Below are positions 2,115 through 58,273 of a DNA stretch of 64,000 nucleotides, one piece after another (the first letter of the stretch is position 1; every line of letters starts with the position of its first letter). Under the pieces are notes generated by a model that saw only the letters and a list, made by a program, of their open reading frames with translations, was not told the origin of the DNA and did not search any database. The position numbers and the translations under genes are program-made. Source of the DNA: Parcubacteria group bacterium Greene0714_7 (GTDB taxonomy: Bacteria > Patescibacteriota > Minisyncoccia > Phycocordibacterales > Phycocordibacteraceae); the NCBI GenBank assembly GCA_007378985.1, contig VMHB01000001.1, forward strand, positions 252 through 64,251, given 5' to 3'.

Positions 2115-3800
2115 TTGCGGTACCCTGTGTCGATGACGCAAAGCGATGCACTCACGATTTTGAAGACGGGCGCTAATGTTTTTTTGACGGGTGAACCTGG
2201 AAGCGGAAAGACTCATACAGTAAATGAATATGTAGCATGGCTTAGGGATAAAGGAATTGAACCTGCAATCACCGCATCAACGGGCATTGCGGCGACACAC
2301 ATTGGAGGCATTACATTACACTCTTGGAGTGGTATCGGTATTGCAGAGCGTTTATCAGAGCAGGATATTGATGCCATTGCGGGGAAAGAACATGTGGCGA
2401 GGCGAATAACAAAATCGCGCATCCTGATCATTGATGAAATTTCTATGCTATCGGGAGAAACCTTAGCGCTAGCAGAAGCGGTGGTACGAGAAGTACATCG
2501 AAGTCAGGAAGTGTTTGGTGGTATTCAGGTGATTTTTGTTGGTGATTTTTTTCAACTCCCACCAGTTTCTAAACGAGGTGCTTCGCGGGCATCGTTTGCT
2601 TTTGAGTCTGCCGTCTGGAAGGCAGTAAATCCAATTATTTGCTATCTCACTGAGCAACATAGGCAAGAAGATGAAACATTTCTTTCTGCGCTTGCTTCCA
2701 TTAGGTCGGGTGTTGCTGATGAAGAGACTTTGCTGTGTTTTCAAGATAGAGCGGTGTTTCAGAACGATGTCTCACATAAAATTCCGCGTCTCTTTGCGCA
2801 TAATATGGATGTCGATCGTATTAATGCGGACGCACTTGCCAAACTGAAGGGTCTGCCGACGGAATTTGCGATGACTGCACAAGGAAGTGACAACCTCGTC
2901 CTTGGCCTCAAGCGAGGATGTTTGTCTCCTGAGAAGCTTTTTCTTAAGAAGGATGCTGTAGTTATGTGTACGAAGAACAATCCGAACATTGGTTTTGCAA
3001 ATGGTACGCTCGGGGTGGTTGTTGGATTTAATGAAGAAAATACGTATCCAATTATAAAAACAAAAGACGGGCATGTATTTACTGTAGAACCTATGGAATG
3101 GGCTGTGGAGCAGGATGGAAAAGTGCGCGCACGAATTACTCAAGTACCACTCAGACTTGCATGGGCAATGACCATACATAAGAGTCAGGGGATGAGCATG
3201 GATGCTGCTGCTATAGACCTTTCTGGAGTATTTGAACATGGACATGGGTATGTCGCACTCTCTAGGGTGCGCACTCTCCAAGGACTCCATCTTCTGGGAT
3301 GGAGTGAGCGGGCACTCTTAGTGCACCCGCGAGTGGCAGAGCAGGATGCACAATTTCGTATTAAGTCTGAGGATGCAAGGGCAGTTTTCGAGGAGATGAG
3401 TGATGCAGAGCATTCGGGTATGGAAGAAAATTTTATTCGTGCATGCGGGGGAACACTTGAAGCAGGGAAGAATATTCACAGTAAAAAAGAAAAATCTAGC
3501 ACACTCTCTAAAACACTTATCTTGATACAGGAAGGTCACTCCATCTCCGATATTGCTAAGATACGATCGCTGAAAGTAGGGACACTTATTGATCATGTTG
3601 AAAAAATAGTAGAGCGGGGCTTATGTGAAGTGAATGATATAAAAAATATTTTTTCGTTGAGTATTATAGAGGCCTTGCCGGTTATTCACGAGGTATTTGA
3701 GCGGGAAGGATCGGAACGACTTTCTCCGGTATTTGAGCATTTTGAGGGCATGTATTCGTATGAAGATCTTCGTATTGCCCGTCTATTTTTTAAGCAATAG
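2115..3800 (+). CDS. PIF1/RecD-like ATP-dependent DNA helicase with a C-terminal HTH domain
   Basis: Walker A GEPGSGKT. Motifs ILIIDEISM and FVGDFFQLPPV. C-terminal region contains a helix-turn-helix. Confidence 0.8.
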   Translation: MRYPVSMTQSDALTILKTGANVFLTGEPGSGKTHTVNEYVAWLRDKGIEPAITASTGIAATHIGGITLHSWSGIGIAERLSEQDIDAIAGKEHVARRITKSRILIIDEISMLSGETLALAEAVVREVHRSQEVFGGIQVIFVGDFFQLPPVSKRGASRASFAFESAVWKAVNPIICYLTEQHRQEDETFLSALASIRSGVADEETLLCFQDRAVFQNDVSHKIPRLFAHNMDVDRINADALAKLKGLPTEFAMTAQGSDNLVLGLKRGCLSPEKLFLKKDAVVMCTKNNPNIGFANGTLGVVVGFNEENTYPIIKTKDGHVFTVEPMEWAVEQDGKVRARITQVPLRLAWAMTIHKSQGMSMDAAAIDLSGVFEHGHGYVALSRVRTLQGLHLLGWSERALLVHPRVAEQDAQFRIKSEDARAVFEEMSDAEHSGMEENFIRACGGTLEAGKNIHSKKEKSSTLSKTLILIQEGHSISDIAKIRSLKVGTLIDHVEKIVERGLCEVNDIKNIFSLSIIEALPVIHEVFEREGSERLSPVFEHFEGMYSYEDLRIARLFFKQ

Positions 3801-46215: not shown

Positions 46216-46724
46216 AGAAGTTTTAAAATTTATTTTTTTATAAAATATCGACCTTTCACTTATATAACTTTTGATACTGGATAGAAGTTACACAAAAGTA
46301 ACTTGCGGGACATTTTCTCTATATTGGAAAGAGCTTCTCGTGCGCCCTTCCGAAATAAGTTCTATTTCATGTACGATACGGAGTTCAATAAAATATCTAT
46401 CTCGGCGCTTTTTTCGATTTGAGAGCAGTGTGTAGGAATATCCTGTTGCTTCAGGTACTGATTTTAGTAGTTGTTTTTCTACAGTATTTGGCTTCATGTT
46501 TTACAAGTGCTTTTAGCAAAACACTTCCTCTTGTAGTACTCAGGATTCTGCGTTCAAGTTCCGAATATGGTATACAAGGAAGCACGGGCCCTCTAAGAGG
46601 ACTGCGTTTTGTATCTAATCGCTTAGCTCTTAGACAAAACGGGAGCATTCGACAGTGTGATGAGGCACCAGGCGTCATATAGTTGTTTTGTTAGAGTGGT
46701 AGTTCTTTCCCGTGATTGAAAAAT

Positions 46725-46809
46725 GGAGGCGTCGGATAGCGGTTTATTCCACCACCTTGGAAAGGTGGCGTACCGAAAGGTACCGAGAGTTCGAATCTCT
46801 CCGCCTCCG
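46725..46809 (+). tRNA. tRNA-Ser (anticodon GGA), type II with a long variable arm
   Basis: Acceptor GGAGGCG/CGCCTCC, anticodon loop TTGGAAA, variable-arm stem GTACC/GGTAC, T-loop TTCGAAT. No encoded CCA. Confidence 0.8.
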
Positions 46810-46815
46810 CAATCG

Positions 46816-46846
46816 GCCAAAAAAGACGCGTATGCGTCTTTTTTGT
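46816..46846 (+). terminator. Rho-independent terminator after tRNA-Ser
   Basis: AAAAAAGACGC-gtat-GCGTCTTTTTT. Confidence 0.65.
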
Positions 46847-46854
46847 TTGCCGTT

Positions 46855-46986
46855 GCGCGAGGCGGAGAGATTCGAAGTGAGCATCGGGACCCGCGCTAGC
46901 AAGCGTGGGTGATGCGAGGTGGCTAGGCGGAGATCCGAGCGACGGCGAGGACCGAGCGCTTAGCCGAATCTCTCCGCCTCCGCCAA
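46855..46986. repeat. tRNA-Ser 3'-end-derived structured repeat, unit A. A 16-bp terminal stem (GAGGCGGAGAGATTCG / CGAATCTCTCCGCCTC) ending in ..CCGCCA.
   Basis: The last 20 nt match the tRNA-Ser T-stem and acceptor 3' strand. Confidence 0.5.
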
Positions 46987-47020
46987 TTAGAAAATACGCC
47001 CCGAAAGGGGCAATTTTCTT

Positions 47021-47168
47021 TGGCGGAGGCGAGCAATGCATCTGCATGCATTGCGTGAGAGATTCGAATGCCGGAACCATGTCGCTTGCGACAGGTGAGG
47101 CCGGGCTGGCGCACTTAGCGAGTCCCCGAGCTTAGTGACGGGAGCCGAATCTCTCCGCCTCCGCCAAA
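47021..47168. repeat. tRNA-Ser 3'-end-derived structured repeat, unit B. Terminal helices GGCGGAGGCG/CGCCTCCGCC and GAGAGATTCG/CGAATCTCTC, with an internal hairpin GCAATGCAT-ctg-CATGCATTGC.
   Basis: The 3' 25 nt are identical to unit A. Confidence 0.5.
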
Positions 47169-47231
47169 ATTCGGAATTTAAATTTCCGTCAAAAATATGG
47201 TTAGCACGAAATCTAAGTTAGAATAGGGCAC

Positions 47232-47642
47232 ATGAATCTTGAATACATCAATGGAATAATTTTTCTAGCATCTCTCTGTGGTCTTGCGGTTGCAGTGTAC
47301 ATTCGCTATAAGAAAACGCGTAAAGAAATACTCGTGTGTCCGATACATTTTAATTGTGAGGATGTGATACACAGCAAGTATGCGTCTGTACTCGGTGTCC
47401 CTATCGAGATTATTGGTCTTTTCTACTATGGATTTCTTGCGCTCATATATGGGACAGCGGTAATGGTTCCGGAAATTATAACCGCCCCGATAAGCACAGG
47501 GCTAACTTTTGTCACCTCTCTCGCGATGGCGTTCAGTATATATTTATTATTTGTCCAAGTGATACTGAAGCAGTGGTGTGCGTGGTGCCTCCTATCTTTC
47601 GTATCATCTGTCGTCATTTTTTATTGTGTTGTCTTCTTCTAA
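47232..47642 (+). CDS. Vitamin K epoxide reductase (VKOR) family membrane protein
   Basis: Four transmembrane helices. A loop Cys pair (CP..FNC) and a membrane CAWC motif. Confidence 0.65.
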   Translation: MNLEYINGIIFLASLCGLAVAVYIRYKKTRKEILVCPIHFNCEDVIHSKYASVLGVPIEIIGLFYYGFLALIYGTAVMVPEIITAPISTGLTFVTSLAMAFSIYLLFVQVILKQWCAWCLLSFVSSVVIFYCVVFF

Positions 47643-58020: not shown

Positions 58021-58050
58021 AAAAACCCGCCAATTGGCGGGTTTTTTATT
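58021..58050 (+). terminator. Rho-independent terminator
   Basis: AAAAACCCGCCAATTGGCGGGTTTTTTATT. Confidence 0.75.
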
Positions 58051-58201
58051 GTGTGGTCACGAATATTTTTCCTGACGGAAAAATTTCTCGACCTCCTCTC
58101 GGTACGATTTTCTAATCGCCGGCTCACGGTCGCTTTGCGACATCGCTCCACCTGGCACAAAAGCAGAAAATCTCCCGCAGGGGAGATGTTTCTGTCTTCT
58201 G

Positions 58202-58273
58202 TGCCCTCAGCCAGAATCGAACTGACATCCTCTCCTTAGGACGGAGTAGCTCTATCCATTGAGCTATGAGGGC
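58202..58273 (-). tRNA. tRNA-Arg (anticodon CCT)
   Basis: Acceptor GCCCTCA/TGAGGGC, D-arm GCTCAATGGATAGAGC, anticodon loop GTCCTAA, T-loop TTCGATT. Confidence 0.7.

Follow-up and report, generated by a model that had tools for sequence, protein, structure and literature searches.

Direct repeats that run from the T-loop to the 3' end of a tRNA gene are the classic identity block of tRNA-targeting integrases. The attC sites of integrons and the attP site of CTX phage, which are recombined as folded single strands, offer the nearest precedents for the mechanism considered below, while miniature inverted-repeat transposable elements (MITEs) keep their terminal inverted repeats constant because these are transposase binding sites. 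Patescibacteria have very small genomes with few recognised mobile elements. The present analysis concerns 64,000 nucleotides of Parcubacteria group bacterium Greene0714_7 (contig VMHB01000001.1, positions 252 to 64,251 of the forward strand; this whole stretch is called the window), in which a tRNA-Ser(GGA) gene is followed by two structured units, A and B. These are small insertions in the 3' end of the tRNA-Ser gene that lack open reading frames (ORFs) and are absent from a close relative, and they belong to a large, apparently undescribed family of folded units behind tRNA genes of every kind in Patescibacteria. By a narrow balance of probability, they are mobile insertion cassettes aimed at tRNA 3' ends, structured and non-autonomous. 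The family is absent from Rfam 15.

The tRNA-Ser(GGA) gene is intact and occupies 46725-46809 (features lie on the forward strand unless another assignment is given); ARAGORN places it at 46725-46809/10 and Rfam model RF00005 matches it with 51.5 bits. Its discriminator G at 46809 is followed by CAA, so the gene does not encode CCA. The segment from T-loop C56 to the discriminator (CGAATCTCTCCGCCTCCG, 46792-46809; repeat search D1 and a pattern search) forms the proximal copy, T0, of a repeat that is present three times beside an intact tRNA, as a tRNA-targeting element would leave it. A middle copy (CGAATCTCTCCGCCTCCGCCA, 46965-46985) serves unit A as its 3' arm and cassette B, defined below, as its left end, and a distal copy stands at 47146-47166; both downstream copies include CCA. 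The 25-mer AGCCGAATCTCTCCGCCTCCGCCAA is identical at 46962-46986 and 47143-47167 and has 80% identity to the tRNA-Ser 3' end. A 21-mer searched with up to three mismatches occurs at four sites, all of them at the tRNA-Ser locus, and at none in 100 shuffles.

The reverse complement of each downstream copy is found 79-124 nt upstream, giving two units of 130-150 nt each. In unit A the inverted copy of the tRNA 3' end, T'(A) (GCGAGGCGGAGAGATTCGAA, 46857-46876), is complementary at 16/16 positions (46859-46874 against 46965-46980; inverted repeat I2) and also matches the tRNA 3' end (I1). Core A (46877-46964) lies between the arms and carries the loop motifs TAGCAA (46897-46902) and GAGCGACGGCGA (46937-46948). 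Unit B has a divided 5' arm. T'a(B) (TTTGGCGGAGGCG, 47019-47031; I5 and I7) is the complement of the acceptor 3' strand plus GCCAAA and pairs with 47156-47168 (13/13), and T'b(B) (GAGAGATTCGAA, 47057-47068; I4, I6 and I10) is the complement of the T-loop and the T-stem 3' strand, with 47057-47066 pairing with 47146-47155 (10/10). The motif GCGTGAGRGATTCGAA in T'b(B) is common to loci L030 and L014 (L numbers denote the comparison loci). The arm is split exactly at the acceptor/T-stem boundary by a hairpin (47033-47054) that proved to be a signature module of the family; the earlier note had rightly described an extra hairpin in unit B, but its 9-bp stem encloses the four nucleotides CTGC (GCAATGCAT-CTGC-ATGCATTGC) and not the three given there. 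Core B (47069-47145) consists of P2 (GCC/GGC with a GGA/GA internal loop), then P2a and P3, the last being GGCT...AGCC with a CACTTAGC/GCTTAGTG hairpin.

Both units are exceptionally stable when folded, with minimum free energies (MFE) of -80.8 kcal/mol for unit A and -80.5 kcal/mol for unit B (z = -6.8 and -6.4), and none of 200 shuffles was equally stable. The predicted terminal helix, 16-23 bp long and ending GCCA, is equivalent to the acceptor and T arms of tRNA-Ser. The earlier note had thus been right about the tRNA and its terminator, about units that open with the reverse complement of the tRNA 3' segment and close on the segment itself with CCA, and about a long terminal helix around a structured core. 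The 5' arm of each unit, however, can pair with the repeat copy on its upstream side, across a terminator-like hairpin (I1, 35 nt at 80%; I7), no less well than with the downstream copy, so the unit boundaries drawn there represent one of two equivalent ways of cutting the array. The first of these hairpins (CAAAAAAGACGC-GTAT-GCGTCTTTTTTG, 46818-46845, no strand assigned; I8 and I1) resembles an intrinsic terminator and forms the tip of the long T0/T'(A) hairpin. The second, found in a terminator scan (46989-47019, no strand assigned), has GCCCC-GAAA-GGGGC at 46998-47011 and A/T-rich arm extensions. Redrawn from the empty site of a relative (see below), cassette A (46792-46964) comprises T, terminator, T' and core A, and cassette B (46965-47145) comprises T, terminator, T'a, CTGC hairpin, T'b and core B, each being about 175-180 nt long.

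The strongest evidence for insertion comes from relatives, whose tRNA-Ser loci were reached through homologs of VKOR, the gene just downstream of the units. Two loci with a 95% identical VKOR (L157 and L158) have HtpX, the same small ORFs, tRNA-Ser(GGA) and VKOR in this order, with no units. The L157 tRNA is identical to that of the window up to the discriminator, and in both loci the gene ends in CGCCTCCGCCA with CCA and passes directly into GAATTCGGAATTTAAATTTCC and VKOR. The same GAATTCGGAATTTAAATTTCC junction follows unit B in the window, where the distal repeat abuts the flank (A/G)AATTCGGAATTTAAATTTCC as in L157 and L158, and where the ancestral flank between tRNA and VKOR (47167-47231) aligns to L157 2936-3000 and to L155. 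It follows that the tRNA-Ser gene of the window has gained about 355 nt by insertion into its 3' end, and that the distal repeat with its CCA is the ancestral tRNA end, pushed downstream. By the same comparison, the 3' end that tRNA-Ser now uses, which lacks the CCA carried by the empty site and has its own terminator, came with the insert; T0 would have arrived with cassette A. Three further loci (L043, L080, L095) likewise have CCA on the distal copy and none on the functional tRNA, a pattern that is expected in all four loci if the cassette supplies a new tRNA 3' end.

Among close relatives the tRNA-Ser locus is an insertion hot spot. One relative (L155) has an orthologous cassette like unit A, with compensated stem changes, a wholly different terminator hairpin and a decayed distal copy; another, whose VKOR is 99% identical (L172), has a different core beside the distal copy; and L159 retains a lone distal copy with no tRNA. 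Comparison of the same locus in relatives, which the earlier note had proposed, therefore revealed presence and absence of the units and not a longer conserved gene. In L155 a 1.2-kb block (1620-2860) encoding a protein with FIST/FIST_C domains lies inside the tRNA-Ser cassette array, flanked by a 33-nt direct repeat (TCGAGCGCTTAGCCGAATCTCTCCGCCTCCGC) made of the core-A 3' end plus the tRNA 3' end, which indicates that protein-coding cargo can sit in the same array. Across the window and loci L006-L114, about 60% of tRNA 3' ends read N73-CA and about 22% N73-CCA, with or without an element behind them; the CCA-less end arrived with the cassette at the single locus that has an empty-site comparison. 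Gene order around the locus varies as well: in L002 (JAGORV010000022.1, locus end 8113), where the penicillin-binding-type protein is 99% identical, its neighbour is not VKOR but an unrelated ORF that also stands upstream of VKOR in L159, so the stretch between the gene for this protein, VKOR and tRNA-Ser has been rearranged even among very close relatives.

The first members of the wider family were fetched through a downstream gene for this 479-aa penicillin-binding-type protein (PBP), after which the regions behind tRNA genes were inspected. Synteny at PBP led mostly to unrelated contexts, yet exposed the same architecture behind other tRNAs. Behind tRNA-Thr, tRNA-Met, tRNA-Ser, tRNA-Asp and tRNA-Glu, the 3' end of the tRNA recurs first as an inverted copy and then, 120-260 nt downstream, as a direct one. 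Between them lies a common core, consisting of P2 (GCC...GGC with a 5'-GGA/3'-GA internal loop), a P2a hairpin and P3 (GGTCG...(U/C)GUGACC with a hairpin of its own). A covariance model, R1, built from eight copies recognises unit B with 61.1 bits (E = 1e-12 to 1e-15), and core B is accordingly a type I core of the family. Unit A scores only 8.5 bits because the outer P2 stem is missing; it is treated as a degenerate member on account of its two loop motifs and of the L155 ortholog with compensated stem changes. A pattern derived from the core retrieved more than 120 metagenome contigs among the matches listed, a set of taxonomically unassigned contigs that is skewed to type I cores. At least two further core types (II and III) occur within the same outer architecture, as in L030, behind another tRNA-Ser(GGA).

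The fold of the core is supported by covariation. In an alignment of 102 copies fitted to R1 (metagenome copies, genome loci and the window), 97.4% of cells are paired, a level approached neither by any of 500 shuffles nor by slid controls. Double-sided changes occur in 7/11 pairs, and one P2 pair is CG in 39 copies, GC in 38, AU in 14 and UA in four. One P3 pair is G.U in 89 of the 98 distinct sequences, which identifies the folded strand as the tRNA-sense strand, whether as RNA or as single-stranded DNA. The loops are also conserved, with nAGCAn on P2b, GAGCGACGGCGA on P3b and CUGC on the upstream hairpin, and the P2 internal loop (GGA/GA) is constant across the family. The CUGC loop stays constant while the P2b loop varies (AGCA, AGUA, ACUU), and no covariation bears on a kissing interaction between them. 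A K-turn in P2 was considered but not called, for a tandem G.A is present but the bulge, read from the sequence, has one nucleotide instead of three. Hairpins with a CTGC loop and a stem of at least 7 bp occur only twice in the 64-kb window, both times inside elements, which eliminates the notion that they are a generic terminator form of the genome. A CTGC-loop hairpin follows 37/68 tRNAs that have a core downstream against 5/87 that do not.

The elements occupy a fixed position relative to their target. Of the 104 hits whose upstream sequence was long enough, 83 are found no more than 130 nt past a tRNA gene on the same strand, most often at 49-52 nt, and 10 more are later members of arrays; 18 amino-acid types are represented among the upstream tRNAs. 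The arms are matched to the locus. T', on the 5' side of the core, is complementary to T0 at the end of the upstream gene, the median duplex being -17.1 kcal/mol against -12.1 for mismatched loci (p = 8e-12), and this holds in long-arm and short-arm copies alike. T, on the 3' side, is a direct copy of T0, their longest common string averaging 8.8 nt against 4.5 in controls. The duplicated segment ranges from about 4 to 27 nt across loci, and in long-arm copies T runs from T-loop C56 to the 3' end. The same rule is kept where the upstream gene encodes a protein (L088/L100, L097, L116, L085). At tRNA stem pairs that are not Watson-Crick, T' is the complement of the 3' strand in four cases and a copy of the 5' strand in none, so it is a true inverted copy of the 3' end and not the 5' half of a tRNA pseudogene. 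The same observation disposes of a degenerate tRNA copy with an insertion in the T-loop, and it leaves the tRNA-derived SINE offered in the earlier note unsupported. Its other suggestions, a MITE-like element or a structured non-coding RNA, fit better in so far as the core is conserved at more than 100 other loci, but the arms do not behave as those of a MITE.

The window contains a third family member, of the short-arm type, on the reverse strand (58049-58200) directly after tRNA-Arg(cct) (58201-58273, reverse strand). It has a CTGC hairpin at about 58166-58194, the short arm TTGTGCC and one extra core hairpin, and it ends in GTGACCACACAA; R1 gives it 18.5 bits (E = 0.035) in a partial match at 58048-58120. 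This locus was compared among strains whose adjacent glutaredoxin-like protein (Grx) is 100% identical. Orthologous copies are present in L162 and L163, the core being common to the window and L162 with two substitutions. In the CTGC hairpin, by comparison, 9/20 positions per arm differ between the window and L162, fully compensated, where the flanking intergenic DNA is about 3% different. L166 and L168 have a different, canonical core behind the same tRNA.

Turnover of this kind is rapid elsewhere too. Orthologous tRNA-Lys loci differ in the number and type of their cassettes, and the initiator tRNA-Met site is filled in L006 and empty in L013. Conversely, 98.7% identical cores stand behind tRNA-Ile (L075) and tRNA-Arg (L093), with different arms and hairpin tops. 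Three identical tandem copies are found in each of L047 and L133, and blocks with ORFs lie within the same arrays in L019, L027, L101 and L155. The block in L019, of about 600 nt and with a small zinc-ribbon-like ORF, is placed between tRNA-Ser(GCT) and its element and has a degenerate copy of the tRNA 3' end as its boundary. At L018 10915-11002 and L019 7802-7889, ARAGORN reports a divergent tRNA-Ser(ACT), an unusual anticodon, about 210 nt from tRNA-Ser(GCT). Downstream of tRNA-Thr(cgt) in L013 (8860-8950), the 3' half of tRNA-Thr is partially duplicated, from the anticodon stem as far as the 3' end, and a tRNA-like 5' fragment interrupted by a CTGC hairpin lies downstream of tRNA-Thr(ggt); these fragments are further kinds of tRNA-end rearrangement in the lineage.

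Neither unit corresponds to a catalogued RNA. At gathering thresholds Rfam 15 finds only three tRNAs in the whole window and nothing in the units. With cmscan at E <= 10 on 46600-47300, the matches within the units (MIR7510, 15.5 bits; IRES_Hsp70, 10 bits) amount to noise, with none from the tRNA clan. ARAGORN finds nothing in 46855-47168, and neither program detects a tmRNA in the window. The failure of the units to fold as a tRNA, a tRNA-Sec or an intron-containing tRNA, remarked on in the earlier note, is therefore upheld by ARAGORN and Rfam, and the covariance check that it recommended assigned neither unit to a known family. Text searches of the literature on Patescibacteria and the Candidate Phyla Radiation (CPR) yielded no description of such elements, although their coverage was incomplete and an earlier report is possible.

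The units themselves contain no genuine ORF or coding signal. A small peptide starting at a conserved ATG after GGAG in the family core was rejected, the spacing not running in threes (45/25/13) and in-frame stops coming early. An antisense ORF of 129 aa (46691-47080, reverse strand) spans the tRNA-Ser gene and both units, and the public contig lists its counterpart (L001 2460-2816) as a gene of 118 aa; the ORF is almost certainly an artefact of gene calling that arises from the GC-rich structured elements. Among the 36 window ORFs scanned, none matches a Pfam integrase, recombinase, transposase or reverse transcriptase, and thus no integrase belonging to the elements was found within the 64 kb. 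When 318 ORFs within 4 kb of elements were clustered, no family recurred except the protein used to fetch the loci. The lack of an ORF, of an enzyme match and of a recurrent neighbour fits a non-autonomous element. The sole DNA-transaction protein noticed among the scanned ORFs is a PIF1/RecD-like helicase with a C-terminal HTH_40 domain (2115-3800, forward strand), and nothing ties it to the elements.

If the elements are mobile, their arrangement could be produced as follows. Cassettes A and B would have entered the tRNA-Ser(GGA) 3' end in succession, each bringing a replacement T, a terminator-like hairpin, an inverted T' and a conserved core with hairpins P2 and P3; with a new 3' end supplied by each cassette, the tRNA remains intact. 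The mobilising enzyme would be encoded elsewhere. A circle consisting of T, hairpin, T' and core could cross over with the chromosome anywhere inside T, and the product would have the observed order of tRNA(T), hairpin, T', core, original T and flank. In the free form, T would pair with T', the resulting duplex being a replica of the target that is closed on one side by the hairpin and on the other by the core, and the recombination substrate would be this folded single strand, either as single-stranded DNA or as RNA copied to cDNA. Such a replica would explain why an integrating element carries an inverted attachment-site (att) copy and why its fold is strand-specific. This folded-strand mechanism in particular is put forward tentatively.

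A bolder version, which is possible but somewhat doubtful, supposes either integration guided by nucleic acid and self-specified through programmable T/T' arms or a new class of catalytic or ribonucleoprotein (RNP)-forming RNA that acts on tRNA 3' ends. In the programmable form, the scaffold of core and CUGC hairpin would recruit a host or trans-encoded enzyme and the paired T/T' replica would pick the insertion site by homology or base pairing, so that a few substitutions in the arms would allow the 3' end of any tRNA or other gene to be colonised.

Several points weigh against mobile cassettes. The mobilising enzyme was not identified, and no excised or circular form was seen. A single protein recombinase that serves 18 tRNA types and some ORF ends without base-pairing guidance is hard to picture. 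The two tandem G.A motifs and the conserved loops (nAGCAn, GAGCGACGGCGA, CUGC) resemble features of a functional RNA or RNP more than those of a DNA site. Since the retrieval pattern was taken from the core, the apparent conservation of the pattern positions is inflated. In some cases (L066, L093, L106) the element is flanked by tRNA genes that are only 8-120 nt apart and is probably co-transcribed with them, which makes a host cis function conceivable. Finally, part of the turnover between strains could come from recombination between copies and not from transposition. The readings are not fully exclusive, as a selfish cassette may also make a functional RNA.

A host cis-acting RNA is accordingly the first alternative to be weighed. 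It would be transcribed together with the tRNA, and T' would pair with the tRNA 3' end or trailer and direct or control 3'-end formation, whether through termination, endonucleolytic release, protection from exonucleases or self-cleavage by the core, the tRNA being released through competition from the 3' arm. Without exception the element shares the strand of the tRNA, starting at or a few nucleotides past the discriminator, and the pairing of T0 with T' is the one pairing that is locus-specific in both arm types. The covarying fold with its strand-specific G.U, the copies inside tight tRNA clusters, which must be transcribed, and the frequency of the element (about 10/38 tRNAs in loci not selected for it, and 2/4 in the window) all agree with such a role. 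Yet the element is dispensable, because near-identical strains have the same tRNA without it, and arrays of up to three copies, displaced 3' ends and interchangeable unrelated cores are unlike a housekeeping signal. Upstream of most copies, moreover, stands a strong terminator-like hairpin that no promoter follows, and some copies are found behind protein-coding genes. A cis-acting role is therefore unlikely.

A trans-acting small RNA shaped like a tRNA minihelix is improbable to the same degree. Such an RNA could be a substrate of RNase P, RNase Z, the CCA-adding enzyme or an aminoacyl-tRNA synthetase, its core could bind a protein, and it might act as a decoy, a primer or part of an RNP. The idea draws on the predicted terminal helix of units A and B, with its acceptor and T arms of tRNA-Ser and its GCCA end, and on the 23 long-arm copies over many tRNA types, in which the CTGC hairpin is placed where tRNA nucleotides 8-48 would be; the conserved loops and G.A motifs suggest protein binding. 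Against this, the 3' arm is only short in 45/68 members, in which T':T pairing does not exceed that of controls (p = 0.08), whereas in the 23 long-arm copies it is locus-specific (p = 3e-4). The tRNA-like minihelix is thus the property of a subclass and not a feature of the family. The distal CCA, for its part, is just what remains of the ancestral tRNA end, the units yielded no promoter-like site, and the arms match the neighbouring gene even if it encodes a protein.

The units could also be ordinary scars, that is, attL or attP leftovers of decayed prophages or islands that encoded an integrase and had entered tRNA-Ser, much as the earlier note had supposed in speaking of tandem attachment-site scars. 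That proposal was sound in that the repeats bound insertions, have an empty counterpart in L157 and match the classic block from T-loop to 3' end, and larger ORF-bearing blocks do occur in the same arrays (L019, L027, L101, L155). The structure between the repeats is conserved and covarying, however, so that they are not mere scars: decay cannot yield the same covarying core at more than 100 loci behind 18 tRNA types, nor arms that track the locus, nor 100%-identical tandem copies. A phage or plasmid origin was rejected in its own right, for blastn against INPHARED phages and PLSDB plasmids gave no match to the elements, and in IMG/VR the core pattern had no matches and a looser pattern two, neither of them found by R1. 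Scars of this sort are very unlikely. Hardly credible, lastly, is neutral growth of palindromes, in which terminator hairpins extend by template switching and copy the tRNA end with no function or mobility. Fully compensated block changes are the signature of templated (quasi-palindrome) mutation and the hairpin arms do change in this manner between strains about 3% apart elsewhere, but the conserved core, the constant CTGC loop, the displaced CCA copy and the near-identical cores at different tRNAs are left unexplained.

If the mobile-cassette reading is correct, an abundant class of miniature elements, apparently undescribed, inhabits Patescibacteria, and a large share of tRNA genes have their ends remodelled by it, in that the elements replace the encoded CCA, add terminators and build arrays that sometimes include genes. 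The combination of a conserved scaffold with sense and antisense arms matched to the target suggests programmable site selection, which is of interest to biology and to genome engineering. There are practical consequences as well, in that gene callers annotate units as proteins and assemblies break at them, and a covariance model of the family would improve the annotation of CPR genomes.

One further feature of the window lies outside the elements. Three small ORFs of about 40-69 aa on the reverse strand, between HtpX and tRNA-Ser (45790-46500), are conserved in L155 and L157, and a near-identical motif of about 30 nt, AAAA(T)ATCGACCTTTCAC(C/T)TATA(A/T)AAC, stands in front of two of them, at 45940-45969 and 46240-46269. 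The ORFs could be a family of small-peptide genes with a shared 5' element.

Among known systems, MITEs and small structured repeats (Correia/CREE, RUP, REP/BIME and the PATEs of IS200/IS605) are similarly small, non-coding, multicopy and non-autonomous, form long hairpins and vary in presence between strains. The elements described here are nevertheless not MITEs, because it is the interior that stays constant and the terminal arms that vary with the site: each locus has arms of its own, matched to the upstream gene, and the length of the duplication is not fixed. In contrast to MITEs, they also keep a strictly fixed orientation and position relative to the target gene. With tRNA-like RNAs, such as the tRNA-like domain of tmRNA, YrlA, mascRNA, viral tRNA-like structures and the CCA-ended 3' structure of the Mauriceville retroplasmid, units A and B share the capacity to form an acceptor and T-arm minihelix with a discriminator-CCA end. 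Unlike them, the units have no T-loop, D-loop or anticodon arm and match no model, their CCA is inherited from the interrupted tRNA, and most family members have no acceptor mimic.

The bridge RNA or seekRNA of IS110/IS1111 and the EBS-IBS pairing of group II introns offer a different likeness, namely a structured scaffold with target-complementary segments, and related scaffolds with different target-matching segments are indeed seen here (L075 and L093). In this case, by contrast, no DEDD recombinase or intron-encoded protein is adjacent and no donor-binding loop is identifiable. The neighbours at the tRNA-Ser locus are the tRNA, terminators and VKOR, no recombinase recurs, and the P2 internal loop, where a variable guide might be sought, is constant. 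The arms, furthermore, reach 21-25 nt and pair with each other, and the insert is flanked by a target duplication, which those systems do not make.

In their behaviour the elements recall tRNA-targeting integrative elements, which likewise insert in the 3' part of a tRNA, supply a replacement end and displace the original as a direct repeat, with an identity block from T-loop to 3' end (here in long-arm copies), tandem insertions and an empty site in a relative. They differ in that the insert is only 130-180 nt long and has no integrase or other ORF, that an inverted att copy and a conserved covarying core are added, and that one family serves at least 18 tRNA types where a given integrase normally serves one. 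Integron cassettes and their attC sites, together with the folded attP of CTX phage, share arrays anchored at one site and, at the 3' end of each cassette, an imperfect inverted repeat whose arms fold together in one strand around a branched centre. As in integrons, the 3' arm repeats the anchor, cassettes with and without ORFs are mixed and the fold is strand-specific: T'-core-T modules fold, the G.U pair marks the strand, and arrays occur in the window, L047, L133, L101 and L155. The integron R''/R' signature (RYYYAAC...GTTRRRY) does not appear on direct reading of the arms, which are derived from the tRNA (for example GAGAGATTCGAA ... CGAATCTCTC), and no intI-like integrase domain was found within the 64-kb window. 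The arms, moreover, are locus-specific and not universal, the anchor is a tRNA end and not attI, and the centre is conserved and not variable. The architecture is closest to integron cassettes and attC, the behaviour is that of a tRNA-targeting integrative element, and the logic recalls elements that carry their own guide.

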